The position numbers were made by a program, and so were the translations under genes. Below the pieces are notes generated by a model. It was given only the letters and a program-made list of their open reading frames with translations. It did no database searches and was not told the DNA's origin. A stretch of 64,000 bases of DNA from Ignavibacteriota bacterium (GTDB taxonomy: Bacteria; Bacteroidota; Ignavibacteria; Kapaibacteriales; UBA2268): assembly GCA_024636855.1 (NCBI GenBank), contig JAGXGG010000042.1:536-64535 (forward strand). Reading direction: 5' to 3'. Shown one piece after another: positions 17,386-43,991 of the stretch (its first letter is position 1; every line of letters starts with the position of its first letter).

Positions 17386-17541
17386 TAGTAAACCAACGCG
17401 TTTCTAAATACACCCAGAAAATGGGGTAAGGATAAACGACTAATTTTACAATCCGAAATTATTTTCACTTGAAATTGTAACAAATCAGACATTGATTTGT
17501 TAATTTGTCTTAACCTATTTTTTCTAATTGAGGACAAATTT

Positions 17542-26847: not shown

Positions 26848-28224
26848 CTATGACTTCCTTCGTTTTATAAAATAACCACCTGCGATTAGCAATACTAGCA
26901 TCCCACTTCCCAAGAATAACAAATTTTTGACATTGTTGTTTTCTTTTAATTTCTTTTCAACTCTTGTTTTCTCCAACACTAGACTATCAGCAAGCGTTTT
27001 ATTTTCATATTCTAACTCTGCCAGCTTTTCAGTAGTTTCTTTATTGTTTATGCTATCCAGTAGTTTGTTAGATATTTCCATGTACTCTATTGCCTTCTTG
27101 TCATTTCCCTTAGTTCTGTATGATTCGTATAAACAGTCGCAAGCATCTTTTTCAATTTCGATAGCACCTATGCTATTGGAAATAGTATAACCTTTCTCAC
27201 AATTATCTATTGCTTTTCTTATTTCACTCAACTTCAAATAACATTTACCTATATTCATATAGCAAGCAGAGATATCATAACTTTGTTCTATCTCTTCATA
27301 AGATTCCAAGCTTTCGCTAAAGTACCATAGAGCTTGTTTGAAATCACCTTGATTCTTTGAGAGCTCACCTAATAAGAACATCACATTGGCAATACCTTTT
27401 ATATCATTAAGTTCTATGTGTAGTTTCAAAGCCTTATTGTAATATTCTAGTGCATCATCGTAATTATTCATACCTGCTTTTATATACCCTACATTAGAAT
27501 AAGTATCTGCCAAATAGAATTTATCTTTTAGTTTTTTTGCTATTTCTAGTGACTGATTAATATTAACTAACGCTTTTTCCATCTCTTCTAGATCATAATA
27601 AATAAGTGCTATATTCAAATGTCCATTACCTATCCCTTCTTGATAAGCTATTTCTTTTGACAGCTTTATTGTCAACTCATAGTTTTCTATTGCCTTCTTG
27701 TTGTTTCCTATGTTATCATAGATAATACCCATATTATTATATGTCTTTATTATACCTTGTTTATCATTCAACTCTTTTTGAATCTTCAAGCAACGTTCAT
27801 TGTACTCCATTGCCTTATCGTAATCGCCCAGATAAGTATACATAAAGGCTATATTCGTGAGTGAATTTGTTATTCTAACTTTGCTCTTCATTTTTTTATT
27901 TATCTCTAACCCCTTACCCAGATAATCTAATGCTTTCTTATAGTTCCCATTATAAGAGCTTAATATAGCATAGTTGTTATATGCTTCGCTCATGCCTACA
28001 TCATTCTTTTTTATTTCAGAAAATAGATAAAGTTCGTCATTCAATGATTTTGCTGAGTCAGGGCTTGTATTAATCACATTGAAAGTTATGAATTTGGCAA
28101 GAGCAATAATACGACTAGAATCTGGTTCACTTTTGTTCTCCCAAAGCGAGAATAGCGAGTCAGGGTTATTTGCGTATAATAATGATGAGACAATTATAAA
28201 AAGAATAAGGATAGCTTTTTTCAT
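26848..28224 (-). CDS. TPR-repeat protein with C-terminal transmembrane anchor (cyclase-less paralogue of the upstream sensor)
   Basis: The signal peptide and N-terminal region (SLFSLWENKSEPDSSRIIAL) parallel the neighbouring cyclase (LLVKWHNKSLSDSARIISY). The TPR units are followed by a coiled coil and a TM helix, LLFLGSGMLVLLIAGGYFI. No catalytic domain is present. Confidence 0.75.
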   Translation of the reverse strand: MKKAILILFIIVSSLLYANNPDSLFSLWENKSEPDSSRIIALAKFITFNVINTSPDSAKSLNDELYLFSEIKKNDVGMSEAYNNYAILSSYNGNYKKALDYLGKGLEINKKMKSKVRITNSLTNIAFMYTYLGDYDKAMEYNERCLKIQKELNDKQGIIKTYNNMGIIYDNIGNNKKAIENYELTIKLSKEIAYQEGIGNGHLNIALIYYDLEEMEKALVNINQSLEIAKKLKDKFYLADTYSNVGYIKAGMNNYDDALEYYNKALKLHIELNDIKGIANVMFLLGELSKNQGDFKQALWYFSESLESYEEIEQSYDISACYMNIGKCYLKLSEIRKAIDNCEKGYTISNSIGAIEIEKDACDCLYESYRTKGNDKKAIEYMEISNKLLDSINNKETTEKLAELEYENKTLADSLVLEKTRVEKKLKENNNVKNLLFLGSGMLVLLIAGGYFIKRRKS

Positions 28225-28406: not shown

Positions 28407-29846
28407 CTACTTCTTCCAGTAAGAAGGAGCCAAAAGAATTATTACTGTCAGGACTTCCAGCCTACCTACTAACATCAAAAATGACATCAACCATTTGGAT
28501 ATATCTGGTAAAAATCCGAAATTATCAGTGGGGCCAGTAAGGTTCAAACCTGGTCCGATATTGTTGATAGCTGTAACTGCTGAACCAATTGCTGATTCCA
28601 AATCCAACCCAAATAGAATAAGCAAGTATATAGATATTCCTAATATGAACATATATAGAACAAAAAAACCAAGCACATCATGTATTACCTTGTCGTCTAT
28701 TCTTGTATCTCCAACTTTGATTGGTACTATTGCCCTTGGGTGAAGCACTTTTACGAATTGATTATAAGCGAATTTGATTAATAGGATTACTCTTATTACT
28801 TTCATACCTCCAGAAGTGGAGCCAGCCATTCCTCCTACGAACATTAGAGCAAGAGTCATAATCTGTGACGAATTAGACCAAAGTTCAAAATCGGAAGTAG
28901 CGAAACCTGTAGTAGTCATAACGGCGACTACGTGGAATAAGACGTCTCGTATTGCAGGTTCTACAGCACCTGCATATAGATGATAAACATCAGTAAATAT
29001 AACAGTAGAGGAAAACAGTATTATAAATAGATAGACTCTAAATTCTGTACTTTTATATACACTTTTTATATCACCTCGCATCCAATAATAATGTAGTGAG
29101 AAATTGGTACCAGCTATAAACATGAATATTATTATAATGTATTGCGTATATGGAGTTTCACCTGCCAAACTCAAATTCTTTGTAGAGAAACCACCTGTAG
29201 CCATAGTAGCAAATGCATGATTGAGTGAATGGAAAAAGTCCATTCCTCCTGCCATAAGCAACCCTAATTCGGTAACAGTGAGAAGCAAATAGACTCCCCA
29301 TAATAGTTTTGCAGTTTGTGTGATTCTTGGTTTCAATCTATCAGAAATAGGGCCTGGTGATTCTGCCTTGAAAAGTGACATACCACCTATACCAAGAAAA
29401 GGTAAAATAGCTATTGTCAGGACGATAATACCCATACCCCCGAACCAATGCGTTATGCTTCTCCATAGTAGGATACCTTGTGGCAGACTCTCAATTTCTG
29501 ATAAAATAGTAGAGCCGGTTGTGGTAAATCCCGACATGGATTCAAAAAAGGCATCTGAGAATGATGGTATTGCACCAGATAACATATATGGTAAGCTTCC
29601 TAGCAAAGCCATAATTATCCAGCCAAATGAGACTATGGCAAATCCATCTTTGGTTTTCAAATCAGTTTTTTTGTCATTAGTAAGAAATGCAAGGACACCA
29701 ATTCCAAAGCAAATAGCTGACGAAATCAGAAATGCCTGCGCATCACCTGAACCATAGTAATAGCAGAAGGGTAAAGGTAATAACATACCCAAACCTAGGA
29801 ATATAGAGAGAAAAGCTAATACTCTTATTACTATTTTATAATTCAT
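28407..29846 (-). CDS. trkH: Trk-type potassium uptake protein TrkH (copy 2)
   Basis: 479-aa polytopic membrane protein. The selectivity-filter-like motifs SGFTTTGST, MATGGFS, TTTGFAT and GGMAGSTSGGMK match the TrkH/KtrB family. Confidence 0.9.
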   Translation of the reverse strand: MNYKIVIRVLAFLSIFLGLGMLLPLPFCYYYGSGDAQAFLISSAICFGIGVLAFLTNDKKTDLKTKDGFAIVSFGWIIMALLGSLPYMLSGAIPSFSDAFFESMSGFTTTGSTILSEIESLPQGILLWRSITHWFGGMGIIVLTIAILPFLGIGGMSLFKAESPGPISDRLKPRITQTAKLLWGVYLLLTVTELGLLMAGGMDFFHSLNHAFATMATGGFSTKNLSLAGETPYTQYIIIIFMFIAGTNFSLHYYWMRGDIKSVYKSTEFRVYLFIILFSSTVIFTDVYHLYAGAVEPAIRDVLFHVVAVMTTTGFATSDFELWSNSSQIMTLALMFVGGMAGSTSGGMKVIRVILLIKFAYNQFVKVLHPRAIVPIKVGDTRIDDKVIHDVLGFFVLYMFILGISIYLLILFGLDLESAIGSAVTAINNIGPGLNLTGPTDNFGFLPDISKWLMSFLMLVGRLEVLTVIILLAPSYWKK

Positions 29847-29965: not shown

Positions 29966-31405
29966 TTACTTTTTCCAATAGTTAGGAGAAAGTAATATTA
30001 TAACAGTTAATAACTCTAATCTACCGGCTAACATCAGAAATGAGAGTAACCACTTAGATATATCGGGTAAGAATGAGAAATTATCCATTGGACCTACTAG
30101 ATTCAAACCAGGGCCTACGCCACTCATTGCTGTGACTACGGCTCCAATAGAGCTAATAATATCTAACCCAAAAACTGTTAGCAGTAAAACAGATGTAGCT
30201 AGGATAAATACATACAACATAAAGAAACCAAGTACATCTAGTACCGTTTTATCATCTACATATCTATTACCTATTCGAAGAGGGACAACTGCGCGAGGAT
30301 GTAGCACTTTCACAAATTGATTATATGTAAACTTGAATAGTAATATAAGTCTAACTGTTTTGATACCACCAGCAGTCGATCCCGCCATACCCCCACCCAT
30401 CATCAATAGTAATAAGATAACTTGCGATGTCGAACCCCACAGTTCGTAGTCTGCTGATGCGAAGCCAGTACAAGTAATACATGAAGTGACTTGGAATACT
30501 GAATCACGAAATGCTGTTTCTATTGCACCGTTGTATTGTGTATATATATTAAAGAATATGAGTAAACTTGCTATTATAATCGAGAAGAAATAAAACCGAA
30601 ACTCTGGACTTTTGAAATATACTCTCCAATTGCCAGTTACGAAGTAGTAGTGAAGAGAGAAATTTGTTCCTGCTAATACCATAAATGCTATTAGTATATA
30701 TTGAATATATGCAGTTTGCCCTACTATACTGGCGTTATACGTAGAAAAGCCACCAGTCGCAAGAGTTGCAAAAGAATGATTGATAGAATCATAAAAATTC
30801 ATCCCACCACTCATTAATAATAATATTTCAGCAATAGTTAATACAAGATAAACTGTCCATAGTAGCTTTGCTGTGTGTGTAATACGAGGTTTTAATTTTT
30901 CCGAAAATGGACCTGAAGACTCTGCTTTGAATAGCTGCATACCTGCAATTCCTAAGAAGGGAAGTATAGCAATTGTTAACACAATAATACCCATACCACC
31001 GAGCCAGTGAGTTATACTTCGCCAAAACAGTATGCCTTTGGGTAATGACTCTATATCAGTTAGAATAGTCGACCCAGTAGTTGTAAAGCCCGACATAGTC
31101 TCGAATATCGCATTTGTAAAGTTTGGGATAGAACCCGAAAATAGATATGGTAAACACCCTAGCAGTGCCATTATTATCCATCCAAAAGTAACTATAGCAA
31201 AACCATCTTTAGTTTTGAAATCTTTACTTATATCCTTTGGAATAAATACTAATAGTCCGATAGCAAAACAAACAGAAGCCGATTTTAGTAATGCGCTAGC
31301 ATCACCCGAACCATAATAGTAAGAAAATGGTAGAGGTAAGAGCATACCTATTCCTAAAAAGATAGATAGGAAAGCTAGTACTCGTAAAACTAGTTTTACA
31401 TTCAT
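29966..31405 (-). CDS. trkH: Trk-type potassium uptake protein TrkH (copy 1)
   Basis: 479 aa with the same motif set as copy 2 (SGFTTTGST, LATGGFS, GGMAGSTAGGIK). It starts 6 nt downstream of trkA. Confidence 0.9.
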   Translation of the reverse strand: MNVKLVLRVLAFLSIFLGIGMLLPLPFSYYYGSGDASALLKSASVCFAIGLLVFIPKDISKDFKTKDGFAIVTFGWIIMALLGCLPYLFSGSIPNFTNAIFETMSGFTTTGSTILTDIESLPKGILFWRSITHWLGGMGIIVLTIAILPFLGIAGMQLFKAESSGPFSEKLKPRITHTAKLLWTVYLVLTIAEILLLMSGGMNFYDSINHSFATLATGGFSTYNASIVGQTAYIQYILIAFMVLAGTNFSLHYYFVTGNWRVYFKSPEFRFYFFSIIIASLLIFFNIYTQYNGAIETAFRDSVFQVTSCITCTGFASADYELWGSTSQVILLLLMMGGGMAGSTAGGIKTVRLILLFKFTYNQFVKVLHPRAVVPLRIGNRYVDDKTVLDVLGFFMLYVFILATSVLLLTVFGLDIISSIGAVVTAMSGVGPGLNLVGPMDNFSFLPDISKWLLSFLMLAGRLELLTVIILLSPNYWKK

Positions 31406-31411
31406 TTTATA

Positions 31412-32752
31412 TTACTCGAAAAGAGATTCAACACTTGAGAATGATTCAGGCAAAGAGAATACTACTACTTTGTCGCCAGTTATTATCTGCGTGTCTCCTT
31501 TAGGTATTATTAGTTCATCATCGCGCAATATTGCCCCTAGAACAGCACCCTTAGGTATTTTTAGATGCATAATAGGTTTGCGTGTGATTTTTGATTTTTC
31601 TTTTACTACGAATTCTACTATTTCCGCATCTAATCCGGGTAACTCAGCAAATTTTGCGATACCATCACCTTTTATTAGGCGAGTTATAGCATTAACTGTT
31701 ATTTGTTGCTTACTAACTACTGCATCTAAGTTGAGTGCTGGAGTTAATGGAAGATATTCACTTTTCTTGATAAGTGATACTGTTCTTTTGACGCCTATGT
31801 GCTGCGCTACTATACTAGTGATTATATTAGTTTCGTCATCGCCAGTGATAGCAATGAACTGATCCATAGAGTCTAGACTTTCTGACATAAGTAGATCAAG
31901 GTTCGACCCATCACCATGAATAACTAGTGATTTATTGAGCTTCTCAGCAATTGCACGAGCCTTCTTTTCATCACTTTCTATTATTTTCATATTGATTTCG
32001 CCGTCTAGCTCCATCGCCACAAAAGTTGCAGTCAGCCCACCACCTATTATCAATATATCTTCTATTTGTTTTTTAGTTTTACCTAAGTATTCCAAAGCGG
32101 TATCTTGATAATAAGGGGCACAAACCATATATATCTGGTCACCAGGTAAAAGTATATCACTACCTTTGGGGACTATAGTATGTTGCCCACGCTTGATAGC
32201 AGTAACTGTCAAAGGTGGGTTATTTAGTTCTTTACCCAAATCCATTAACTTTTTGTGAAGTAAAGATGAGCTACTATCCAACCGAAGCCCGAAGAATTTC
32301 ACTTTCCCGCCTTCGAATTCTATAATGTCTGTAGCATTTGATTGCCTAATTAATCTAATTATAGTGTCAGCGGTTTCTTTTTCTGGTTGTAAAAAATGGT
32401 CAACTCCAAACTCTTCTTTACTTATAATATGGTCTTCTTTTAGATATTCTGGATTTCTAATTCTAGCAATTGTAGTTTTTACACCATATTTTTTAGCTAT
32501 TTTACAGGCAAGAATATTTACCTCATCATTATCTGTAAGAGCTGCAAGTACGTCTGCTTTTTCTACACCAGCATCTTTTAGTACAGAAGTGCTGCACCCA
32601 TTGCCGGTGATAACAAAGGCATCTAGTGTATCAGAAGCAAAATTAGCCAATTCTTCGTTACTTTCTATAAGTGCTATATTATGCTTTTCTTTAGAAAATC
32701 GACGTGCAGATTGATATCCAATATCACCTGCACCAATAATAATTATTTCCAT
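31412..32752 (-). CDS. trkA: Trk system potassium uptake protein TrkA (two RCK/NAD-binding modules)
   Basis: Two Rossmann motifs (IIIGAGDIGYQSA and LIIGGGLTATFVA), each followed by an RCK_C-like segment. The ~446-aa size is typical of TrkA. Confidence 0.9.
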   Translation of the reverse strand: MEIIIIGAGDIGYQSARRFSKEKHNIALIESNEELANFASDTLDAFVITGNGCSTSVLKDAGVEKADVLAALTDNDEVNILACKIAKKYGVKTTIARIRNPEYLKEDHIISKEEFGVDHFLQPEKETADTIIRLIRQSNATDIIEFEGGKVKFFGLRLDSSSSLLHKKLMDLGKELNNPPLTVTAIKRGQHTIVPKGSDILLPGDQIYMVCAPYYQDTALEYLGKTKKQIEDILIIGGGLTATFVAMELDGEINMKIIESDEKKARAIAEKLNKSLVIHGDGSNLDLLMSESLDSMDQFIAITGDDETNIITSIVAQHIGVKRTVSLIKKSEYLPLTPALNLDAVVSKQQITVNAITRLIKGDGIAKFAELPGLDAEIVEFVVKEKSKITRKPIMHLKIPKGAVLGAILRDDELIIPKGDTQIITGDKVVVFSLPESFSSVESLFE

Positions 32753-32939: not shown

Positions 32940-32993
32940 ATATGTGTCTGTTTTTATAAAAATTGAAATTTAAAATAAATCAAAGGTAAAAAT

Positions 32994-35297
32994 ATGTCTA
33001 AAGGCGGTGGAGCTGGTAAGGTTTATTTCGTACTTTATCTTGCGGTAGTATTAGAGCTTCTAATTATTATCGTAGAAAGAGATGAAGCGGAAGAGCACTT
33101 ACACAAAAAGCAAAAAGAGGCGATGAAAATTGTCCAGTCTATTCTTTCGCAACTTCAGTCCGGTTCTGGTACTGAGGGTATAAATACAAGACCACAAGAT
33201 GAGATTACTATTCCGCCTCCAGGTGTGAATATTAAAGAGGTTTTGGGTATTGATATCAAATCTGAAAGAAGATATATTGTAGAAGTAGGTGTTACAGACG
33301 TTAGTTCTAACTCTACCAGAATGGAAGGTGAAGGACAGAAAGAATATATGGAAAGACTAGAAAAGCTAGTTAGATTGGCTAATGTAGAAGATTTGGAATA
33401 TCAAGTTTTTTATAATAGTAGTCTAGAAACCGGAGCCGTCCCTCCATTCCCTGATAACGACTTTTTCAAAGATAAGACATATGATTTAACCAAATTTGAT
33501 TTGGGTAAAGCTATAATTGAACCGGAATCAAATACTGCTTGGGAGTTCGTTGGAATTCAGAAAATTAAAATGGATGCTGAAGCTACATTTAAAAAGTTAG
33601 ATTTAGCGAACATTAGTACTGATTTGATGCACCCTGTGTATGACAAAGTGAATAAACTTGTTCGTGGCCCAACTTTCGGACCAAATAATTTCCCTGAAGA
33701 TAGTATATTCCACTATTCCATACCTGAAACGAAATTAGCTTCTGGTATTCACGGTGATAGAGGTACATTAAGTAAACGTGCATTCGTTGTTAATTTCCAA
33801 CCACCTGGAAAAGCAGGTTGGTATAAATTACGTTTTGTTTCTAAAACGAATAGAATTTTGGGTGTTCGCTCTGACCAAAAAGTAGAAGAGCTAGACAAAG
33901 ATGCTACAGTTAACATAGGTACCGTACAACTAAAAGTAACTGATTTGATGAAAGTTGAGAAAGAACTAGAACGAAAATTAGAAAAATATGATGTTCCAAG
34001 AGCAGATGTATTGACTTCAGAAGGTGGATTCAGAGCTTTCGATGAAGCAATAGAGAAAGCTAAAACGATAGCATCAAAAGAAGAAGATGCTGGAGATTTG
34101 ATTGGTAATATCAGATTATACGGTTATATAGTAAAACTATTAACTCCAGGTCAATCACAAAACTTCGATCAGAACAAAGGCGATATTGAGTTTAACATCC
34201 GTGTTATGACTCCTAAACCTAAGGTGGCTGACCCAGTTATCCAAGTTGCTGACAATTTCTATAGATTTAATGAAGGTAAAATAAACTTCAGAATGAGTAT
34301 CTCGCCTTATCAGGGTGATGCAAACGTAATCAGAGGTACTGTACACGATGCAGCTTCTGGTACTTCTAGCCAACCTGTTGCTAATGTTACTTTCAAAAGA
34401 GCTACGGATGGTGCTCCTGCTAATGGTGGTAGTGCAGATTATATTGGTACTCTTGATAAAGAATTAGCAGCTGGTACAACCGGCGGTCCTCGTACATTCA
34501 AAATCAAACTAACTCACCAATTACAAGGTAAGAGTGAGACAAAAGAACCTACTTTAGTAGTTTTCCCTGCACAAGTAGAAGAGAAAATCCGAAACTTACA
34601 AGCAAAGTTGAGTGCATTATCAGTATATGGTGAACAGTTATTCTTCAATTTCGAGCCACCATCTGGTAATAAAATCGCTCCTGAGCAATTCGGTTACTAT
34701 TTCAAAACTGATGCTGACCCACAAGACAGAGGCTTAACAACTGGTCTTGCTGCTGAAAGAGCTGACAATCTGTACTTCTCTGCTGATATGAAGAAAGCGT
34801 CTCTTAGAATAGTATGGACGGATCCTATTTCTAAAGAAGAAGTAGATATTTTCCCTAAATATGAATTCAAAATTGTACAATCTGAACCTGGTATTTCGTA
34901 TCTAAACCAACAAGTAAATGCGTCTGTTGATGGTGATATGGTCAGAGTTAGAGTAACTGGAATTAATGTGATTGCTCCTAAGATTGGTAAAGAAGGTGGT
35001 AGTGAGGAAGCTGAAGTGTCATTGACATTAGATGCTCCTCAAGTAAGAATACCTGGGTACACAGTTGTAGGAAAACCAACGATTACAGTAAAAGGTGGTC
35101 AAGCACAAATTGACTTTACTCTAAGAGGTGAGCCAGATGATGATGGAAATATACGTGGAACTGTAGTTGTTAAAGGTTCAGCTGTTGCAATTAATCCAAT
35201 TAATGGAGCTCAATCTAATCCTAGACCTATTAATTTGAACGTTCAAATTAAGCAAAAAGCAGAGAAACAAGATAATTTCTACAATGAGTACGATTAA
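32994..35297 (+). CDS. P1: N-terminally membrane-anchored large periplasmic protein, unknown family
   Basis: 767 aa. A short N-tail (MSKGGGAGK) is followed by a single hydrophobic helix, VYFVLYLAVVLELLIIIV, containing Glu21, then a charged helical segment, then a long beta-rich region. The SD AAGGT lies 6 nt before the ATG. I recognise no named domain. Confidence 0.7.
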   Translation: MSKGGGAGKVYFVLYLAVVLELLIIIVERDEAEEHLHKKQKEAMKIVQSILSQLQSGSGTEGINTRPQDEITIPPPGVNIKEVLGIDIKSERRYIVEVGVTDVSSNSTRMEGEGQKEYMERLEKLVRLANVEDLEYQVFYNSSLETGAVPPFPDNDFFKDKTYDLTKFDLGKAIIEPESNTAWEFVGIQKIKMDAEATFKKLDLANISTDLMHPVYDKVNKLVRGPTFGPNNFPEDSIFHYSIPETKLASGIHGDRGTLSKRAFVVNFQPPGKAGWYKLRFVSKTNRILGVRSDQKVEELDKDATVNIGTVQLKVTDLMKVEKELERKLEKYDVPRADVLTSEGGFRAFDEAIEKAKTIASKEEDAGDLIGNIRLYGYIVKLLTPGQSQNFDQNKGDIEFNIRVMTPKPKVADPVIQVADNFYRFNEGKINFRMSISPYQGDANVIRGTVHDAASGTSSQPVANVTFKRATDGAPANGGSADYIGTLDKELAAGTTGGPRTFKIKLTHQLQGKSETKEPTLVVFPAQVEEKIRNLQAKLSALSVYGEQLFFNFEPPSGNKIAPEQFGYYFKTDADPQDRGLTTGLAAERADNLYFSADMKKASLRIVWTDPISKEEVDIFPKYEFKIVQSEPGISYLNQQVNASVDGDMVRVRVTGINVIAPKIGKEGGSEEAEVSLTLDAPQVRIPGYTVVGKPTITVKGGQAQIDFTLRGEPDDDGNIRGTVVVKGSAVAINPINGAQSNPRPINLNVQIKQKAEKQDNFYNEYD

Positions 35298-35321
35298 TAA
35301 AATAATTCAAAGGTTAAAATA

Positions 35322-37082
35322 ATGAACAGTTTTAAAATAAAAGTATATGCTATCTTTGTAGCTATCTTTGTACTCTCTTCCTTAGGGTTAGAGGCGCAAC
35401 GCATAGACGATGTTAGCTCTATACTTACTAGATTTAAAAACTACAGATTTGGTGCAGTTAACGTTTATAAGATAACGACGCCAGATGAGATAAAAGAGAT
35501 TGTAGAATCTAAGCGAAAGAAAAAGGCTACCGCCGCTGGCGGTGCTACTGATGAAAAGTGTCTAGATGAAGTGGAATCGGGTGTAAAAAGTATAATTGAA
35601 ACAGAAATACTAAACGGTAATTCTCAATCTGGAACAGCAAGAGCTGTAATTATTGCTGGATATACTATGCCTCCAGATGACATATTTGAATGTGCTTACA
35701 AGACACTTTTCGATAAACTTATTGGTAATCAAGGTGAAGCTCTTTCTCCAAAAGCTTATTTGATAACTTCTCGACCTGAAAAAGGTGCAATTCCTGATAG
35801 AATCATAGGTATGATTTATATGGAACAAGAGTTCGATTTGGCTAATCAAGAGGTAAGAGAAGATTTGGATTTTGTATCAAGTGACAATGTTTACTCTTAT
35901 GATAGATTAAAAGATACTGAAATCGATCCTGCTAAATATGGATATGCTAACTTGTATGATTTGGCTTATGCTTATCTAATCCAAGGTAACTTTGAGAATG
36001 AAACAATGGCAGCTCGTGCTATAGGTACAGATGTTATATATATTGGTAAAGTATTTGGAGTTTCGCAACCATTAATCAGCGATAATAGAGTTAGCTCTAA
36101 AGATATTCAGATGTACAAGAGAATATCTCAAGGACAACCAGAAAGATATTTAGGTAAAAACAATATCTTGACTGTCAGCCCTGATTTGGTAAGTTGGACT
36201 CAATATGAGCCACGATTTGCTCGTAAGAGAGATGGCTCTACGGTTACTGATTCTTTGGGTAATCCAATAATTGATCCTCGTAATGCAACTAATGATTACT
36301 TACCTAATTTCGGTGTTGAATTGAAATACGGTATAGAAGGTATAAACTATCCTTCTTTCTGGAGTAATAGAATGACACTTTCTGCTATATGGAAGAATGT
36401 GAAATTTGGATTCATTTTACCGACTGACGGTTGGGCTTCATTCTCTGAAGATGTTTACAATCAACAAAGAACAATGACTTATGCTGGAGTGGGAGTATCT
36501 GGTACTTTAGATTTCCCATTTGCTATAATTCCTCGTAGTGATGTATTCCAAGTAAAGTTTGGATATGTATTCGGTGATGCTGTAGCTGGTAATGGAACTT
36601 CTACTGTAAAAACTGACCCTTTTGATTTTCTTCCACAAGTAAGTGCTTTAAGCAATGATTATCTAATGAGATTTAATACTCAAGTTCATTATACTTTCGG
36701 TATAAGTATAGATGATGACTATTTTATGCGATTTAGTGTCGGTGGTACTGGTTACTCTATGGAAACTTGGGGATATGAAATCAATGAAGATTTGGATAAT
36801 CCAAGTGTTGACCTAAAAGAAAGAGGAAGTGAATTTGTTGGTGGAATCTCTGGTAAATTAGAATTCATGACAACCAATAACACAACACCTTTTGGTGGTG
36901 GTATTCAGTATTTCGACGAATCATTGCAATTCAATGGTTGGGTGCAAGTTCCTGTAGTTGAGAATACATTCTCTATTAGATTGGAAGCTAATGGCTATGC
37001 TGTTGCTTTCAGAAAAGATGCTAGACCTTGGGAAATGAACTCGTTACTAGTGCCTATGGCTCGTTTAATTTATGTATTCTAA
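35322..37082 (+). CDS. P2: secreted protein with C-terminal outer-membrane beta-barrel-like domain, unknown family
   Basis: 586 aa. Signal peptide (VAIFVLSSLGLEAQ). The C-terminal ~260 aa are rich in alternating aromatic/Gly strands and end ...ARLIYVF. The SD AAGGT is present. The gene starts 24 nt after the P1 stop. Confidence 0.7.
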   Translation: MNSFKIKVYAIFVAIFVLSSLGLEAQRIDDVSSILTRFKNYRFGAVNVYKITTPDEIKEIVESKRKKKATAAGGATDEKCLDEVESGVKSIIETEILNGNSQSGTARAVIIAGYTMPPDDIFECAYKTLFDKLIGNQGEALSPKAYLITSRPEKGAIPDRIIGMIYMEQEFDLANQEVREDLDFVSSDNVYSYDRLKDTEIDPAKYGYANLYDLAYAYLIQGNFENETMAARAIGTDVIYIGKVFGVSQPLISDNRVSSKDIQMYKRISQGQPERYLGKNNILTVSPDLVSWTQYEPRFARKRDGSTVTDSLGNPIIDPRNATNDYLPNFGVELKYGIEGINYPSFWSNRMTLSAIWKNVKFGFILPTDGWASFSEDVYNQQRTMTYAGVGVSGTLDFPFAIIPRSDVFQVKFGYVFGDAVAGNGTSTVKTDPFDFLPQVSALSNDYLMRFNTQVHYTFGISIDDDYFMRFSVGGTGYSMETWGYEINEDLDNPSVDLKERGSEFVGGISGKLEFMTTNNTTPFGGGIQYFDESLQFNGWVQVPVVENTFSIRLEANGYAVAFRKDARPWEMNSLLVPMARLIYVF

Positions 37083-37110
37083 TAATTGTAAAACAGAAAG
37101 AAAATTGAAT

Positions 37111-38568
37111 ATGAAAAATATAAAAATAATAATAATTGTAAGTATCTTAATGTTAGCTAGTTCTTCTTACAAGACAATGGCACAAGCATCAAGTGATTAC
37201 AACTACGTTGATTCTTTGACAACGATTGATTATGAATTACGTAAAATGTTCCCTCGTTGGAAAGTTTGCGAGCCAGATTTGCAATTCCAAATCTATCAAG
37301 CATTCTCTATTTACGGATATTCTAAAGATGAATTGAATATAGAAGAAATCGAAGTTTTGGCTTCACCAAAGCCACCAAGAGAAAAAAATTATGAAATCTT
37401 ATTGATTTCTTGTGGGGATGCAACTATGAAACCACAAGAGATTGACCAGAATATTAAGCAAATTTCTAAATACTTATCAGGTGACGATAATTACAATAGA
37501 TACGAAAGACCTACTCCAGGTGCTGATTCTAGAACCTATTGTTATATCGAGATACCACCAGAAATTCCAGTTAAGCCTTCAGAAGCTACTGCAATCCAAG
37601 ATTATTTGAAACCAGAAGACAAGATACAAGCAATCACTATATCTTTATTCGAGCAATCACTTAAAATAGGTGAAACAGGATTTTGGATTCAAAATAAAGT
37701 AGGTACTGACGAAGTTGGTTATCAATTCTGGTCTGCTGGTGAAAGTAAAGTTACTCTCCAAAGACCATTGATGAATAACACTGACCCAGTTACTAGAGAA
37801 TTCGTTCCTAGATTAATCAACGCATATTTAGGTGGTGGTTATAGGCATTCTTCTGGAATTGATAATGCTGGAACTGCTTTCTCATGGGTTGCTAATCGTA
37901 AATTAAATGCAGGTCCTGATGGTAAATTAGTTGCTGGGTTTGATGTTCACATGCCTTTCCATCCTCAATTCGGTATTGGTTTGAATTTGGAACTACCTTT
38001 TAGTGACTTGAGAAATAGAAATGTTGCTATAGAATCTTACGGAAGATATGATAATACTAACGGTGCTGAATTTAGAAGAGACGCAGAATTCCAAGACCCT
38101 CGTAATGGTGACACTACTATTATGAAATTGGGTATTGCCCCATTGTTAAGAGAAACTGGTCAATTCACATTGTTCTATAATTTATGGTTAGGTAACGATA
38201 ATACACCATCACACTATTTCAGATTTGATGTAGGTGCTAGTTATGCACAAGTAGATGAGTATTTGATGTACCAACAAGGATTCGAATATATAATAGAAAG
38301 AGAAAATGTAACAGGACTAAATAGTTTTAAACCAAATGAATTTGCTGATTGGGTATTTTTGAAAGCTCAATATAGAAATCAACAAGCGTTTCCATTTAGT
38401 TTGAGTGTTCAGTACTCTAATCAAATACTAATGGCTCAGGCATATATGCCTATATTCGGTAACTGGTTCTTACTAGAAGGAAGATTCTCAAGTATATTAA
38501 GGGATCAGAGACCTTATGAGATACAAAACTTCTTTATGATAAGCCCGATACTAAGAATAACTATATAA
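37111..38568 (+). CDS. P3: secreted protein with C-terminal beta-barrel-like domain, paralogous to P2 in its C-terminal part
   Basis: The likely start is ATG 37111 (MKNIKIIIIVSILMLASSSYKTMAQA signal peptide). The ORF track begins at 37072, overlapping P2. The C-terminal motif DQRPYEIQNFFMISPILRITI parallels DARPWEMNSLLVPMARLIYVF in P2. Confidence 0.7.
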   Translation: MKNIKIIIIVSILMLASSSYKTMAQASSDYNYVDSLTTIDYELRKMFPRWKVCEPDLQFQIYQAFSIYGYSKDELNIEEIEVLASPKPPREKNYEILLISCGDATMKPQEIDQNIKQISKYLSGDDNYNRYERPTPGADSRTYCYIEIPPEIPVKPSEATAIQDYLKPEDKIQAITISLFEQSLKIGETGFWIQNKVGTDEVGYQFWSAGESKVTLQRPLMNNTDPVTREFVPRLINAYLGGGYRHSSGIDNAGTAFSWVANRKLNAGPDGKLVAGFDVHMPFHPQFGIGLNLELPFSDLRNRNVAIESYGRYDNTNGAEFRRDAEFQDPRNGDTTIMKLGIAPLLRETGQFTLFYNLWLGNDNTPSHYFRFDVGASYAQVDEYLMYQQGFEYIIERENVTGLNSFKPNEFADWVFLKAQYRNQQAFPFSLSVQYSNQILMAQAYMPIFGNWFLLEGRFSSILRDQRPYEIQNFFMISPILRITI

Positions 38569-38579
38569 GAAATCAACAA

Positions 38580-38612
38580 CCCTTCTGTTTTAGAGCAGAG
38601 GGGTTTTTTTTT
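38580..38612 (+). terminator. Intrinsic terminator after P3, immediately upstream of P4
   Basis: The stem CCCTTCTG (38580-38587) pairs with CAGAGGGG (38596-38603), with one G-U pair and an 8-nt loop. Nine T residues follow (38604-38612). Confidence 0.75.
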
Positions 38613-38637
38613 ATTTCTACATTCAGTAACTTGCAAG

Positions 38638-39993
38638 ATGATTAGAGCCATTGTCATATTAATTGCATTAACTTCAGTATTTACTACCAGTAATATACTT
38701 GTTGCCCAATCTGATAATATAAGTGAACAACCCACGGCTGCAGATAGCTCTGCCAAGAGAAAAGACCTGATGCGTTCAGCATCCGTTACCTACGAAAAGA
38801 AAGATATAAAGCTTACTATACAAAACGTAGATATTTCTAATTACCCTATAATAAAAGTAATAGTAGAAGCATATAATATTTACGGTCAACCGCTAGATAC
38901 CTTATATTCTGAAGGATTATCAGTATTAGAAAATGGCGTAGAACACGAAGTAATATCAGTAGATAAGCTTTCGATTAATGAAAGAGTACCTGTTGATTTT
39001 ATATTTGTAATAGACCAAACAGGTTCTATGCAGACCTATATTGATGCTGTTAGACAGAAAGTACGTGATTTGACTGATTTCTTGAAGACTCGTGGTATTG
39101 ACTATACTCTGGGATTGATTTTATTTTCTGATGAAGTAGATAAAGTTTACCAACCTACACCTGATGTAAATGATTTTCTAGGTTGGATAGGTAGAGTAAA
39201 GGCAAGAGGTGGTGGAGATGTTAAAGAAAATGCACTCGAAGCACTAAAAGCAGCTTCAAAACAAATCGAATATAGACCCTCAGCAAATAAAGTAGCAGTC
39301 TTAGTTACTGATGCACCATATCATCAAGTAGGTGAGTCAGGAGTGGGCAGCACTGAGCAAACTACTGAATCTATAACTAAAATGCTTTTCGATGATCAAA
39401 TTAGGGTGTTTAGTATTGTACCTCCAAGATTATCGGCTTACAACTATATCTCCTCAAATACGAGAGGGAATTTCTACGATATAGATTATCCGTTTTCTAC
39501 TATTCTAGATAATTTTTCTAATCAGTTGACTAATCTGTATGCTCTAAAATATAGAACTGAGAAGCCAGCTATCCCAGATAGTATAGACATTGCTATAATC
39601 AATGAAAGAAAAGAAGAGCTAACTAAAAAGACTATTCCTATAGTAGAGTTAGGTCGTAGATTAATCATAGAGAATATGTTATATCAAACTGGTAGTTCTA
39701 ATTTGCCAGACACTGTTCCCGAGCTAGAAGTGCTTTCTATGTTTATGAATAATAGAAAGAACGTAGTAGTTATGATAGAAGGACATACTGATGCTATAGG
39801 CAGCGAAGAGACTAATAATCGTCTCTCAAAATTCAGAGCAGAAAATGTAAAGTCATACCTAATCAAAAAAGGCATATCTGCTAAGAGAATAAAAACACAA
39901 GGCTATGGAGAAAGTCGCCCTATAGCTTCTAATAATACAGATTTCGGTCGTAAACTTAATAGGCGCACTGAGATAATAATAATTGCTAAGTAG
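38638..39993 (+). CDS. P4: secreted von Willebrand factor A domain protein with C-terminal OmpA/MotB-type peptidoglycan-binding domain
   Basis: Signal peptide. vWA MIDAS-like segment VDFIFVIDQTGSM...LVTDAPYH. OmpA_C segment IEGHTDAIGSEETNNRLSKFRAENVKSYLIKKGISAKRIKTQGYGESRPIASN...NRRTEIIII. Confidence 0.85.
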   Translation: MIRAIVILIALTSVFTTSNILVAQSDNISEQPTAADSSAKRKDLMRSASVTYEKKDIKLTIQNVDISNYPIIKVIVEAYNIYGQPLDTLYSEGLSVLENGVEHEVISVDKLSINERVPVDFIFVIDQTGSMQTYIDAVRQKVRDLTDFLKTRGIDYTLGLILFSDEVDKVYQPTPDVNDFLGWIGRVKARGGGDVKENALEALKAASKQIEYRPSANKVAVLVTDAPYHQVGESGVGSTEQTTESITKMLFDDQIRVFSIVPPRLSAYNYISSNTRGNFYDIDYPFSTILDNFSNQLTNLYALKYRTEKPAIPDSIDIAIINERKEELTKKTIPIVELGRRLIIENMLYQTGSSNLPDTVPELEVLSMFMNNRKNVVVMIEGHTDAIGSEETNNRLSKFRAENVKSYLIKKGISAKRIKTQGYGESRPIASNNTDFGRKLNRRTEIIIIAK

Positions 39994-40055
39994 TTGGTGG
40001 AAATTTAAGGGTAAAATTTGAACAGTCGTATATAAATTAATAAACAAAAACACAA

Positions 40056-40544
40056 ATGAAATCATATTTTATATTACTTATTAGTATTCTTTTTGTTTTC
40101 TCTTGTAGTGATGATAGTACTGTTAAATATGTAGAGGTTCCAGTTGATACTCTAAAAACTATTAAATTCAAGCATAATCTTCAAGAAAGTAATTTTATGA
40201 CAGACGTTGATACTTTGAAAATAGAAATACTTGATAAAAATTTAAAAGAATACAAGATGCCATTTTCTAATTTACTTTTAGTAAAAGGACGTTTATCACC
40301 CAATATTACGGGGAGACCTAATTTCGCTTTTGAACAAATAAATTCTGATTTGAGATTTGAAATTAATCCTAATAATAAGTATGAAATATGGATTACTAAC
40401 TTACAACCTACAATCGATTCAACGAGAAGTCATGGGGATGTAAGTCGTTATGATTACTACACAATCGATATTCTGTTTTCGTTAATAGATGAATATTATA
40501 AAGATAGTTTTTTCACATTTTTCGTTCAATCTACAACAGAGTAA
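40056..40544 (+). CDS. P5: small lipoprotein, unknown function
   Basis: 162 aa with a signal peptide and lipobox ILFVFSCSDD. It lies on the same strand, 62 nt after P4. No motif was recognised. Confidence 0.55.
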   Translation: MKSYFILLISILFVFSCSDDSTVKYVEVPVDTLKTIKFKHNLQESNFMTDVDTLKIEILDKNLKEYKMPFSNLLLVKGRLSPNITGRPNFAFEQINSDLRFEINPNNKYEIWITNLQPTIDSTRSHGDVSRYDYYTIDILFSLIDEYYKDSFFTFFVQSTTE

Positions 40545-40547
40545 GAA

Positions 40548-41078
40548 CTAGCTGATGTTTTTCAACTCAGTCATGGTAAATAATGAGTAAAGCTTAATAC
40601 CAACTTCTTTCAACTTTTCCTCACCACCTGCTTCACGATTAATTACGCAAATAGCTTCTTCTACAATTGCACCTCGCTCACGCAATTCATCAGCACTGAT
40701 TATAATCTGACCACCACTAGTAACAACATCTTCTATTATCAAAAGCCTTTTACCAGCTATATCTGGGCCTTCAGCTAGTTTACAAGTACCATATTCCTTA
40801 GCTTCTTTGCGAACTAATACCATATCATATCCTGCTGCTAATGAGATAGCAGTAGCTATAGGAATACCACCCATTTCTAAAGGAGCAAGCATATCGAATT
40901 CTAATCCTGGGACTATTGTTTCGTTAATTTGATTACTAATCTCACGAAGTAAATGAGGTCTTGATTCGAATTGGTATTTGTCAAAATATTCGTGACTAGT
41001 AACACCAGAACGAAGTTTAAATTCGCCAGTTATGTGAGCCACATTGTAAATTTCTTTGCAAAGTTCTTGTTTTGTCAT
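40548..41078 (-). CDS. pyrE: Orotate phosphoribosyltransferase
   Basis: MTKQELCKEIYNVAHITGEFKLRSGVTSHEYFDKY plus the PRPP-binding loop LLIIEDVVTSGG. The start ATG at 41076-41078 overlaps the upstream stop (ATGA). The ORF-track N-extension to 41132 is unlikely to be real. Confidence 0.9.
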   Translation of the reverse strand: MTKQELCKEIYNVAHITGEFKLRSGVTSHEYFDKYQFESRPHLLREISNQINETIVPGLEFDMLAPLEMGGIPIATAISLAAGYDMVLVRKEAKEYGTCKLAEGPDIAGKRLLIIEDVVTSGGQIIISADELRERGAIVEEAICVINREAGGEEKLKEVGIKLYSLFTMTELKNIS

Positions 41079-42415
41079 TCTAATTCTAATATTGAGTATA
41101 AATAAATAGTAACTGCAATAGCTGCTACACATTGCTTGAATTCATCTTTATCTACTTTATCAAAAGTATCGGCAGGGGAGTGGTGATACCAGAAATATCT
41201 ACCTTTATCATCTGGAGATAAACTCATCCCAGGGACACCTGTATCCATAAGTGGACTTATGTCAACTCCACCACCACCTTCATCAACAGTGATTTGAGGG
41301 TTGACTTTTTGAAGTAGTGGTTCGAATTTCTTTACTTGTTCCATTATCTCTGGGCTACCTTTGAATCTAATGACAAGAGGTGCGAATGTACCTGCATCAG
41401 ATTCGAATGCCATAGCGTGTTTCTCATTTGCAAAGCCCTTAGCGTACTCTTTACCACCCATGGCACCATTCTCTTCGTTTGTCCAAAGAACAGAGCGTAT
41501 AGTGCGTTTATTGTTTAATCCTAGTTCATCTATCAAACGAACGGCTTCCCAAGTTGTCATACAACCTCCACCGTCATCTTGAGCACCTTGACCGGCATCC
41601 CAAGCATCTATGTGTCCACCAACTGAGATTATCTCGTCAGCTAAAGTACTACCTTTTGTTTCACCCATCACATTATGCGAGAGTGCATCTGGATAATGCT
41701 TTGCGTGCATAGTTAGGTTTATAGTGGCTCTTTGTCCTTTATCTTGGTATCTTTGTAGTAGCTCAGCCCCTTCTAGAGTAATAGCAGCATGTGGTATTTT
41801 AGTAGTACTGTCATTGTAAGCCATCATCCCTGTATGCGGATTGTCAAAACCAATCGGACTAACAGAACGGATAAGACTAGCTACAGCTCCGTATTGAGCT
41901 GCCCATTGTGCTCCGTAGAATCTATATTGGACAGTTTGTCCATAAGTAGTGAAAGGTGCGTTGAAAAGAACAATCTTTCCTTTTACTTCGTCTTTTCTTC
42001 TATCTAATTCATCTCTATCTCTTACGACTAATACTTCTGCCGTTATACCTTCTTGAGGAGTAGCTACACTACCGCCTAACCCAAGCAAATCTATATCATA
42101 TTCCATAGGGAAAATGACTTTCAAAGACTCGTAGTGTCTCTTCCAATTCGGAACCATTACGGGTTGTTTTTGTACATTAGTTAACCCATCTTTGTGCATC
42201 TCTTCGTATATCCAATCGATAGTCCTTTCGAGCTGAGGAGTTCCACTAAGGCGATTAGCGAAATTATTACATAGATATTCTAATCTCTCCCAACCGATAT
42301 TGCTTTTCATAGCAGCTTCTATGATCTTATCTACATCATCTTCATAATCATCGGGATTGAAGTCTTTTGAGAATAATAGTATTGGGAATAATAGTAGGAA
42401 AAGTATCTTTTTCAT
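41075..42415 (-). CDS. M28-family metallopeptidase with PA domain
   Basis: Signal peptide. Metal-ligand motifs VGGHIDAWDAGQGAQDDGGG and WTNEENGAMGG, with a PA-like insert. Confidence 0.8.
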   Translation of the reverse strand: MKKILFLLLFPILLFSKDFNPDDYEDDVDKIIEAAMKSNIGWERLEYLCNNFANRLSGTPQLERTIDWIYEEMHKDGLTNVQKQPVMVPNWKRHYESLKVIFPMEYDIDLLGLGGSVATPQEGITAEVLVVRDRDELDRRKDEVKGKIVLFNAPFTTYGQTVQYRFYGAQWAAQYGAVASLIRSVSPIGFDNPHTGMMAYNDSTTKIPHAAITLEGAELLQRYQDKGQRATINLTMHAKHYPDALSHNVMGETKGSTLADEIISVGGHIDAWDAGQGAQDDGGGCMTTWEAVRLIDELGLNNKRTIRSVLWTNEENGAMGGKEYAKGFANEKHAMAFESDAGTFAPLVIRFKGSPEIMEQVKKFEPLLQKVNPQITVDEGGGGVDISPLMDTGVPGMSLSPDDKGRYFWYHHSPADTFDKVDKDEFKQCVAAIAVTIYLYSILELE

Positions 42416-42593: not shown

Positions 42594-43991
42594 ATGAAAA
42601 AACTACTATTAATTCTGGCGATAATCCTACTAACTAACACAGCACTGCAAAGTGCAGAAGTCATTCCTGTTTGGATGAACATTTGGAAACAAGGTGGTTG
42701 GGTTAATGATTTTGAATTACTAAGAGGGGAAGATCAATTTATTATGATTGCTGGCTTAGAAGGATCAGGTGCAGTAGAAATAAGGGAAACACTTACGGGT
42801 GAATTGGTAAAATCGTTTCCATTACCAACCGCTTCTTATTTCAACCAAATTGAAATAACTCCAGACAGCAATAAAATTGTAATTACAACAGGTGGAGATA
42901 AAGTAAATAACCCCACTTTAGAGTTAAGGAACATTGGGAACTTTGAGTTAATAAAAAAACTCGATATAAAGATGGATGCTGATTCTGTTGATCCTAAAAA
43001 TCAACCATATTATTATCAGTTTAGAGATATAATTATAGACCCAATTAAACAATATATATATGCTTTTATAACAAAGACAAACTATTATATGGATGAAGAT
43101 GAAGACAGAACTTGGTTAAAAGTATATAATTATGAAACAATGGAAGAAGTAAGAGATTTAACACCGCAAGGTTATGAATATGAACAAATGAAATGTATGG
43201 ATGTTTCTGATGATGGTACGCAATTAGCAGTACTAAACGAAGGTAAATCTTATTTAAAAATATGGAAGGCCGAAACTTTTGAATTATTAATAGACAAACA
43301 ACTTTATGATAACAGTTATTTTGACCCAAAAGATTACTTGTGCAAAGCGGGTGATATTGAGTTTTCTCATATAGATAATGACCTTTTATATATATCAGGA
43401 GTTTTTCCGAATAAAGAGAAATCTAAAAATCCAAATTTTAGTGCTTCTGGTTTTTACAAATATAAACTATCAAAGTATAATTTTTATAAAGATTATTTAG
43501 GAACTAATCAAAATGATAAATTTATATTATTCGACAACGAAGTACGAGTGCTTTTAGGTATGACAGGTATTGTTGTTTTAAATCAATATACGAATAAATT
43601 AGAGATTCTAAGTAAATCGGATATAAAATATCCAACAGGAGTTGGAAATTTATATTCAAAAAAGTTTAACTTTTTCATAGGAAGAGCTTCTAACATATAT
43701 TCTGGATTTAAGTACGATTCTCAGACAATAATAGAAGCAGGTAGTGAAGAAGAAATGATTGTTTCTCCTAACCCAACTAATAGCTTTGTGAAAATAAACA
43801 TGAATTGCATTAGCGAGACAAGTAGTTATTCAATTACTAATCAATCAGGAATGCAATTAGAACAGAAGACTATATCTAATAACTTGAATTCTCTTGAAAT
43901 AGATTTCACCTCTTACCCAACTGGGATTTACTTTCTTACTATCCAATGTCAAGGGGAGATAAAGACATATAAAGTAGTGAGAGAAGGATAG
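42594..43991 (+). CDS. Secreted beta-propeller-like protein with T9SS C-terminal sorting domain
   Basis: Signal peptide. The C-terminus MIVSPNPTNSFVKINMN...GIYFLTIQCQGEIKTYKVVRE is T9SS-type. The body is repeat-like and beta-rich, with no catalytic motif recognised. Confidence 0.6.
   Translation: MKKLLLILAIILLTNTALQSAEVIPVWMNIWKQGGWVNDFELLRGEDQFIMIAGLEGSGAVEIRETLTGELVKSFPLPTASYFNQIEITPDSNKIVITTGGDKVNNPTLELRNIGNFELIKKLDIKMDADSVDPKNQPYYYQFRDIIIDPIKQYIYAFITKTNYYMDEDEDRTWLKVYNYETMEEVRDLTPQGYEYEQMKCMDVSDDGTQLAVLNEGKSYLKIWKAETFELLIDKQLYDNSYFDPKDYLCKAGDIEFSHIDNDLLYISGVFPNKEKSKNPNFSASGFYKYKLSKYNFYKDYLGTNQNDKFILFDNEVRVLLGMTGIVVLNQYTNKLEILSKSDIKYPTGVGNLYSKKFNFFIGRASNIYSGFKYDSQTIIEAGSEEEMIVSPNPTNSFVKINMNCISETSSYSITNQSGMQLEQKTISNNLNSLEIDFTSYPTGIYFLTIQCQGEIKTYKVVREG

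Follow-up and report, generated by a model that had tools for sequence, protein, structure and literature searches.

Three described systems come closest to the genes reported here, a conserved envelope module that we followed outward from a 64,000-nucleotide stretch of DNA (hereafter the window) of an Ignavibacteriota bacterium (GenBank assembly GCA_024636855.1, contig JAGXGG010000042.1, positions 536 to 64,535 of the forward strand). The module comprises P1, a predicted single-pass inner-membrane protein; P2 and P3, two predicted outer-membrane β-barrel proteins; and, in most loci, P4, in which a vWA domain is fused to an OmpA_C peptidoglycan-binding domain. The first comparator, the system for type IX secretion (T9SS), occurs in the same Fibrobacterota–Chlorobiota–Bacteroidota (FCB) lineage and combines PorL and PorM (GldL and GldM) with accessory outer-membrane β-barrels (PorP/SprF) and an OmpA_C peptidoglycan anchor (PorE). 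PorM crosses the inner membrane once, and its periplasmic part terminates in a stack of immunoglobulin (Ig)-like domains; in GldM, an Arg-bearing transmembrane (TM) helix leads into a helical first periplasmic domain. P1 to P4 have a loosely similar predicted layout, although architecture alone is no proof of membership. Unlike T9SS loci, the module has no gldK-gldL-gldM-gldN cluster: P1 is preceded by a divergent trkA or by other unrelated genes, and among its neighbours none of a multi-pass or GldK/N-like kind is conserved. P1 further differs from GldM in its α/β middle region and its Glu-bearing TM helix, and P4 differs from PorE in having a vWA domain, in lacking tetratricopeptide repeat (TPR), β-propeller and CRD domains, and in not being a lipoprotein.

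The Tol-Pal and TonB systems likewise feature an inner-membrane-anchored protein that reaches into the periplasm and is most conserved in its TM helix, together with an OmpA-like peptidoglycan binder and a presumed coupling to the outer membrane. A 2025 survey found neither a canonical tol-pal locus nor a pal gene in Bacteroidetes and expected further outer-membrane-stabilising systems to exist (PMC12204202). In contrast to Tol-Pal and TonB, the module holds no TolQR or ExbBD genes, and nothing in Tol-Pal corresponds to its pair of dedicated barrels that carry periplasmic domains.

The third system, the Agl-Glt gliding transducer of Myxococcus, has single-pass inner-membrane proteins (GltG/GltJ) and the paralogues GltA and GltB. 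Compared by description only, it resembles the module in bringing outer-membrane β-barrels and a protein with a vWA domain and metal-ion-dependent adhesion site (MIDAS), CglB (PMC9946355), into a trans-envelope assembly. It belongs to an unrelated phylum, however, and no AglRQS-type motor genes lie at the module. CglB serves as an adhesin and is a lipoprotein of the cell surface; in P4, by contrast, the vWA domain is joined to a domain that binds peptidoglycan in the periplasm.

On present evidence, P1, P2 and P3 belong to no known system: they are three orphan families accompanied by a recognisable vWA-OmpA anchor. Should a complex of the three exist, it would make up an envelope system that defines its lineage, a widespread though uncultured class within the Bacteroidota-Chlorobi group, and none of its three families would have a described relative. 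It would also bear on how diderm bacteria without canonical Tol-Pal couple their outer membrane to the cell wall and inner membrane.

P1, P2 and P3 keep one gene order across related loci

An earlier note, made from the letters of the window alone, had read five genes between trk and pyrE as one envelope-spanning module. Open reading frame (ORF) calls agree on the five genes, all on the + strand. They are flanked on the - strand by trkA and two trkH genes upstream and by pyrE and an M28-type peptidase gene downstream. Their features, by window position, are as follows.

32994-35297 (+): P1, 767 amino acids (aa), type II inner-membrane protein, first gene of the core; AlphaFold2 (AF2) model with a mean predicted local distance difference test (pLDDT) score of 80
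32994-33224 (+): P1 residues 1-77; cytoplasmic tail, TM helix, ERDEAEE junction, helix with a coiled-coil-like repeat, DEITIPPPG motif
33171-34148 (+): P1 residues ~60-385; central α/β region in the AF2 model, ending in a helical hairpin
34176-35258 (+): P1 residues ~395-755; about four β-sandwich domains of Ig-like type, forming the C-terminal stalk (AF2 pLDDT ~85-93)
35322-37082 (+): P2, 586 aa; signal peptide, α/β periplasmic domain of ~300 aa, predicted barrel at residues ~330-586 (nucleotides (nt) 36309-37079), C-terminal Phe
37111-38568 (+): P3, 485 aa with MKNIK as its start; signal peptide, Cys-containing periplasmic domain, P2-like C-terminal domain (~nt 37813-38565)
38578-38614 (+): intrinsic-terminator-like hairpin between P3 and P4, found by scan; 12-bp GC-rich stem and T-rich tail, TTTTTTTTATT
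38638-39993 (+): P4, 451 aa; signal peptide, N-terminal domain, vWA domain (nt 38995-39477), OmpA_C domain (nt 39682-39963)
40056-40544 (+): P5, 162 aa, lipoprotein with lipobox VFSC

Using peptide patterns from the P1 N-terminus, we retrieved 154 related loci from species-representative genomes, 144 of them with distinct P1 sequences. The earlier note had allowed that the genes might not be syntenic in relatives. We found the opposite: two barrel genes follow P1 directly and on the same strand in all 111 distinct loci with enough downstream sequence to be evaluated, while the flanks vary. P4 is the next gene after P3 in 87 of 105 loci. A single clade, distinguished by a short P1 (~540-560 aa), accounts for all 18 loci that have no P4 beside P3; within it, L089 alone keeps P4. 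ORF clustering of the 55 long loci revealed no further neighbour conserved in more than 18. Since no other neighbour is widely conserved, it is by local accident that trk and pyrE flank the module here, and the module travels as one unit. The strict co-linearity of P1, P2 and P3 across deep divergence argues that the three act together.

Thus the five-gene unit originally proposed shrinks to a co-conserved P1-P2-P3 core with P4 as a frequent fourth member. P5 is ruled out as a component by its lack of conservation. Its lipobox is present as described, and a counterpart occurs in a single locus of 80 (L005, 46%); even where P1 is 89-91% identical, P5 is absent and P4 adjoins pyrE. Its absence from such close relatives marks P5 as a lineage-specific insertion between P4 and pyrE. 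P5 received no assignment from Pfam, NCBIfam, PADLOC or PHROGs, and one weak NigD-like match (E 0.027).

As far as could be seen, the module is restricted to Kapabacteria-type genomes, and it is present in every Kapabacteria genome examined. The nearest P1 relatives (~90% identity) come from metagenome-assembled genomes (MAGs) labelled Ignavibacteriae or Candidatus Kapaibacterium. We also encountered the module on contigs labelled as uncultured Hyphomicrobiales, Alphaproteobacteria, Desulfobulbaceae, Armatimonadota or Chitinophagaceae (L012, L013, L014, L019, L109, L124, L146 and others). These labels are probably wrong, because the module genes are Kapabacteria-like and some of the contigs have trk/pyrE flanks too. 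The module can therefore serve as a clean phylogenetic marker that flags probably mislabelled MAGs (Hyphomicrobiales, Alphaproteobacteria, Desulfobulbaceae, Armatimonadota).

The spacing of the genes and the hairpin behind P3 suggest where the operon ends. P1 and P2 are separated by 24 nt and P2 and P3 by 28 nt, matching the earlier figures; the gap widens to 69 nt between P3 and P4 and is 62 nt between P4 and P5. Directly 3' of the P3 stop codon, a hairpin and T-run occur at the same position in 10 of 12 folded loci from three clades (L001, L002, L005, L007, L012, L015, L024, L034, L058 and L089), with differing stem sequences. The spacer of L116 has no hairpin, and the fold of L011 is ambiguous although its T-run is present. 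The element looks like a terminator or attenuator separating P4 from a P1-P2-P3 operon. Its conservation after P3 makes P1-P2-P3 the most likely conserved transcription unit, and P4 would most likely be expressed separately or by read-through past the hairpin.

Gene starts called for smaller corrections. The longest ORF for P3 begins at 37072; comparison with relatives places the start at the Met of MKNIK, 37111. A good Shine–Dalgarno sequence had been claimed for each gene, and we found AAAGGT before P1 and P2 only, with nothing obvious before P3, P4 or P5. P1 and P2 are also preceded by a near-identical box of 16-17 nt (32974-32993 and 35302-35321; TCAAAGGT(T)AAAA(T)A, then ATG) that P3-P5 do not have and that may be a shared translation-initiation element. 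The G+C content is ~34%.

P1 carries a near-invariant transmembrane helix

P1 had been described as a giant, which is overstated for a protein of 767 aa. The predicted topology, a short tail and a single TM helix, holds: a 9-residue tail is followed by the sole hydrophobic segment of the protein. Because this is a type II anchor, P1 beyond residue 27 is expected to be periplasmic. The TM helix spans 18 residues (10-27; nt 33021-33074; VYFVLYLAVVLELLIIIV) and carries an invariant, membrane-embedded Glu, Glu21, in its middle. It lies within residues 1-77 (GKVYFVLYLAVVLELLIIIVERDEAEE...DEITIPPPG), the most conserved block of the module; these residues are nearly invariant, compared with 43-50% identity over the rest of the alignment. 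Towards the clade of L116, the N-terminal block is 75% identical, the centre ~26%, and the Ig stalk has no detectable similarity. The motif YLAV.LELL occurs in all 144 distinct P1 loci, a count that is partly circular because the loci were retrieved by P1 N-terminal peptide patterns. Divergent short P1 forms from an unbiased hidden Markov model (HMM) search have the motif as well.

In the AF2 model, one unbroken helix runs from residue 7 to residue 55, so that the TM part continues into the periplasm. From the 3-4 spacing of its hydrophobic residues, we read the post-membrane part as a putative coiled coil. This near-invariant TM helix with its Glu stands out above every other feature, and it points either to P1 oligomerising tightly or to its docking into an unlinked partner that conducts protons. 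The helix offers a sharp, testable handle for telling an energy-coupling partner from oligomerisation.

A second conserved block, F..P..G.Y.LRF...TN.I.GV...V.IG.V.L.V., lies in the central region and is invariant in long and short forms of P1. The central domain (residues ~242-382) also recurs in otherwise unrelated proteins of ~600-800 aa (P0356, P0366 and P0385), of which P0356 and P0366 scan positive for a T9SS C-terminal sorting domain. Residues 64-406 correspond to a separate paralogue family of 390 aa without the Glu-TM helix (for example P0330, locus L155, 8001-9194); the genes around P0330 offered no clue. The central domain looks mobile. The stalk is the variable part of P1, being shorter or replaced in other clades, and overall length ranges from ~540 to ~790 aa. 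When the whole P1 model was searched with Foldseek, the Protein Data Bank (PDB) and the viral libraries alike yielded nothing but tandem Ig matches of a generic kind (ICAM, titin, KIT, pilins), which mask the N-terminal domains.

P2 and P3 are predicted paralogous barrels

P2 and P3 both begin with signal-type segments ending in AQ, as does P4, in line with the signal peptides first noted for the two barrel proteins. P2 has every generic feature of an outer-membrane barrel: a signal peptide, a predicted antiparallel C-terminal barrel and a C-terminal aromatic residue (...RLIYVF), the terminal Phe having been noticed before. In its AF2 model (pLDDT 79), ~12 long strands begin at residue 330 and continue to the C-terminus. 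Foldseek against the PDB matched barrels of several sizes (OmpU, FadL, OmpF, AlgE and COG4313) at E values of 2e-4 to 5e-3, with TM-scores of ~0.2-0.4 normalised by target length. These matches support a barrel fold for the P2 model and no particular barrel family. Between clades, only the barrel of P2 is conserved, whereas its N-domain diverges.

The outer-membrane pattern proposed for both C-terminal domains is thus backed by modelling and Foldseek for P2, and for P3 by homology to P2; the P3 of the window ends in Ile, whereas Phe is the last residue of both barrel proteins in other clades. Profiles of the two families align over the last ~131 columns (hhalign 93.4%, E 2.6e-7), and BLASTP relates P2 to P3 over 203 residues (E 0.001). 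P3 is therefore a candidate outer-membrane barrel paralogous to P2. The N-domains of the two proteins, 230-300 residues long, would be periplasmic given the signal peptides and barrel topology.

P4 joins a vWA domain to a peptidoglycan-binding domain

P4 is a bona fide member of the OmpA_C and vWA families, in agreement with its first description. Of known proteins, generic peptidoglycan anchors of the OmpA_C/MotB type fused to vWA domains come closest to it. The OmpA model (PF00691) matches at E 2.9e-21 (76.1 bits against a cut-off of 27.2), and three Pfam VWA models lie above their cut-offs at E values of 1e-10 to 1e-12. The MIDAS motif, D126-x-T128-x-S130, is conserved. Across 55 sequences, D126 and T128 are kept in at least 95% and S130 in at least 80%, and TDA at 224-226 is conserved (T224-D225). 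The predicted metal site thus has Thr in place of the first Ser of D-x-S-x-S. In the same 55 sequences, the peptidoglycan-binding motif GHTD...N..LS..R is conserved, and the OmpA_C part has matches among the solved domains of OmpA, Pal, MotB and YiaD. The signal peptide is of the cleavable type and has no lipobox, and mature P4 contains no Cys. P4 is better conserved than its neighbours, with 40% identity between clades versus 22-30% for P1-P3. We found no described counterpart, in the literature searched, of a vWA-OmpA_C fusion fixed behind an orphan three-gene operon.

P1, P2 and P3 match no named family

The earlier note could assign P1, P2 and P3 to no named family, and this stood up to searches of Pfam, NCBIfam, PADLOC, PHROGs and PDB sequences. 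Family members scanned singly against Pfam (17 P1, 24 P2 and 24 P3 sequences, E up to 5) gave no match. Sequence and profile matches in the PDB to NADH peroxidase, Rpo8 and asparaginase (E 0.1-2) we rejected as chance. A characterised system would have settled the question in the other direction, and none emerged; Foldseek against the PDB returned only generic Ig domains and generic outer-membrane barrels. The P1 family numbers at least 655 proteins, all unnamed; where the source gives a name, it is 'hypothetical protein', except for one evidently spurious CheC label. A P1 profile HMM searched against 1.84 billion cluster representatives found 207 proteins at E up to 0.001, which makes the family a narrow one. 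A divergent P3 profile gave 329 matches, the best 120 of which are all unnamed and without Pfam domains. Literature searches revealed no description of a P1-P2-P3 module. All three families deserve domain-family definitions.

Searches aimed at individual systems gave the same picture. PorM/GldM had been singled out as the likeliest hidden identity, and the N-terminus of P1 shows a K....YL resemblance to GldM. We rejected this candidate on an hhalign probability of 1.2% between P1 (17 sequences) and GldM (15 Flavobacteriia sequences). The GldM models of Pfam and NCBIfam matched neither the P1 of the window (E up to 1) nor 17 family members (E up to 5). The PorP_SprF models of the same databases matched neither P2 nor P3 of the window, nor 24 family sequences of each. 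A regular-expression search for GldM over 2.7 Mb of Kapabacteria loci gave 0 matches, a weak test that carries no weight either way. A type IV pilin-like N-terminus was also rejected, the Glu of P1 lying ~13 residues past any plausible Gly cleavage site and not at +5.

Other candidates fared no better. Neither a TonB_C or TolA C-terminal domain (Pfam and NCBIfam) nor an SHLS-type motif (inspection of the TM sequence) was found in P1. For TamB/AsmA, P1 has no AsmA or DUF490 match in Pfam, and its AF2 model shows discrete α/β and Ig-like domains and no continuous β-taco. The MoxR ATPase, DUF58, BatA/BatB and BatC genes of a Bat operon are not among the conserved neighbours, and the vWA domain of P4 is fused to OmpA_C, not TM-anchored. 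P4 also falls short of Pal, scoring 66.6 bits against TIGR02802 (cut-off 125), with no lipobox and no tol genes nearby.

A proposed envelope-bridging complex and its alternatives

We tentatively favour, at somewhat less than an even chance, the reading that P1, P2 and P3 form a Kapabacteria-specific complex bridging the envelope, with P4 usually tying it to peptidoglycan. In such a complex, a P1 oligomer would be rooted in the inner membrane by its Glu-bearing TM helix and probably paired through the helix that follows. Its α/β domain and then its Ig-like stalk would reach across the periplasm. P2 and P3 would form a pair of barrels, each of ~12 strands, whose large periplasmic N-domains meet the P1 stalk. 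P4 would be a soluble periplasmic protein, with OmpA_C gripping peptidoglycan and the MIDAS gripping an acidic residue of a partner. The role that we consider most likely would be to tie the inner membrane, the wall and the outer membrane together mechanically, much as Tol-Pal, PorE or OmpA do, in the service of envelope integrity or an outer-membrane process. There is a hint that an unlinked inner-membrane partner might energise or regulate P1 via the charged TM helix. The P1 stalk and the P2 N-domain, the parts proposed to touch, diverge fastest between clades, which may weakly suggest co-evolving contact surfaces. The observations that we built on are the order of the genes, their co-conservation, their domain folds and their conserved motifs.

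Several points weigh against this proposal. The earlier note's unassigned, co-conserved envelope module stands, but the trans-envelope apparatus that it envisaged is one we infer from predicted location and synteny, and the same is true of each protein's location, of every protein contact and of the function. No inner-membrane partner or energy source is found among the module genes. P4, counted as a module member from the start, keeps its place behind P3 in most loci; it also lies behind the conserved hairpin and is missing beside the module in the 18 loci of one clade, so peptidoglycan anchoring is either not obligatory or encoded elsewhere. The length of P1 varies by more than 200 residues, a poor fit to a strict periplasm-spanning ruler. 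For P2, closure and strand number of the predicted barrel derive from secondary structure and from fold matches with low TM-scores (0.2-0.4), and for P3 the putative barrel derives from homology to P2.

An alternative that we consider unlikely, while taking it seriously, is that the module works as a machine with an energy supply. In it, P1 would transduce force or act like a rotor, resembling TonB, TolA or GldM in function, its Glu-TM helix docking into an unlinked proton channel of the MotA, ExbB, TolQ or GldL type and driving transport, secretion or surface movement via P2 and P3. Conservation in the module is highest in the TM helix, with its invariant Glu21 beside the acidic ERDEAEE, and the single-pass partners of 5:2 motors (TonB, TolA, ExbD, MotB and GldM) are likewise most conserved in their TM helices. 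In E. coli, tonB is unlinked from exbBD, and the OmpA_C domain of P4 resembles the peptidoglycan anchors of MotB and ZorB. However, in no clade does the module have a conserved MotA/ExbB/GldL-like gene nearby, P1 has no TonB_C, TolA or GldM domain and no SHLS-type motif, and a buried Glu can equally serve oligomerisation. Quite unlikely, in our estimate, is the more specific idea of an energised, Kapabacteria-only trans-envelope machine of a class not known before, in which a proton-driven partner would act through the P1 Ig stalk on a heteromeric barrel pair, with the vWA-OmpA protein as a wall-anchored stator element.

It is also possible, if doubtful, that no complex exists. P2 and P3 would then be ordinary channels for the uptake or efflux of small solutes, P1 a co-expressed, membrane-anchored periplasmic protein that scaffolds or binds, and P4 an OmpA-like wall anchor in its own right, adjacent by chance. 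The fold matches of P2 are all diffusion channels (porins, FadL, AlgE and COG4313). P4 is transcriptionally separated, dispensable in one clade, and so much better conserved than P1-P3 as to suggest constraints of its own. Yet the order of P1 and two barrels is strict in all clades despite changing flanks, which argues for stoichiometric co-function over mere co-regulation. Periplasmic domains of 230-300 residues on both barrels are unusual for simple porins, and P4 remains beside the module in 87 of the 105 loci.

That the module is a diverged branch of type IX secretion or gliding, with P1 standing for PorM/GldM, P2/P3 for PorP/SprF and P4 for PorE, is very improbable: although the organism uses a T9SS, P1 resembles PorM in its TM helix and Ig-like periplasmic domains and shares its central domain with proteins that carry a T9SS C-terminal domain, and P4 has a weak match to PorE in its OmpA part, the hhalign comparison with GldM fails, the 17 P1, 24 P2 and 24 P3 sequences show no GldM, PorP/SprF or type B C-terminal domain match even at E up to 5, PorM/GldM is missing from the top 50 Foldseek matches of P1, gldK, gldL and gldN are not adjacent, and the PorE match is to the generic OmpA domain only (65 bits against a cut-off of 600). 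The link between the module and the T9SS amounts to a loose architectural likeness and the occurrence of the P1 central domain in a few proteins with T9SS C-terminal domains, and nothing further.

Other features of the window

Type A sorting domains of the T9SS occur in three ORFs of the window, and a 1196-aa ORF is partly PorZ-like (92 bits, cut-off 260). Together they indicate that the organism has type IX secretion.

12668-15238 (-): ORF with T9SS type A sorting domain
17497-19878 (+): ORF with T9SS type A sorting domain
42594-43991 (+): ORF with T9SS type A sorting domain
20421-24011 (-): PorZ-like ORF

Upstream of the module, trkA (31412-32752) adjoins two tandem trkH paralogues of 479 aa each, at 28407-29846 (-) and 29966-31405 (-). 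Beyond them lie two adjacent TPR-rich proteins, at 24572-26776 (-) and 26848-28224 (-), with partial matches, far below cut-off, to the N-terminal part of FimS-type sensor kinases; the two may be tandem paralogues. Two abutting ORFs of ~750 aa, at 3575-5833 (-) and 5833-8100 (-), gave no NCBIfam match at E up to 1e-8 and make a further unassigned pair. Downstream of the module, the longest ORF for pyrE (40548-41132, -) overlaps the upstream peptidase gene (41075-42415, -) by 58 nt. The true start of pyrE probably lies past the first ATG, since the profile match begins at residue 35 and an internal Met is present at residue 19 (MTKQEL).

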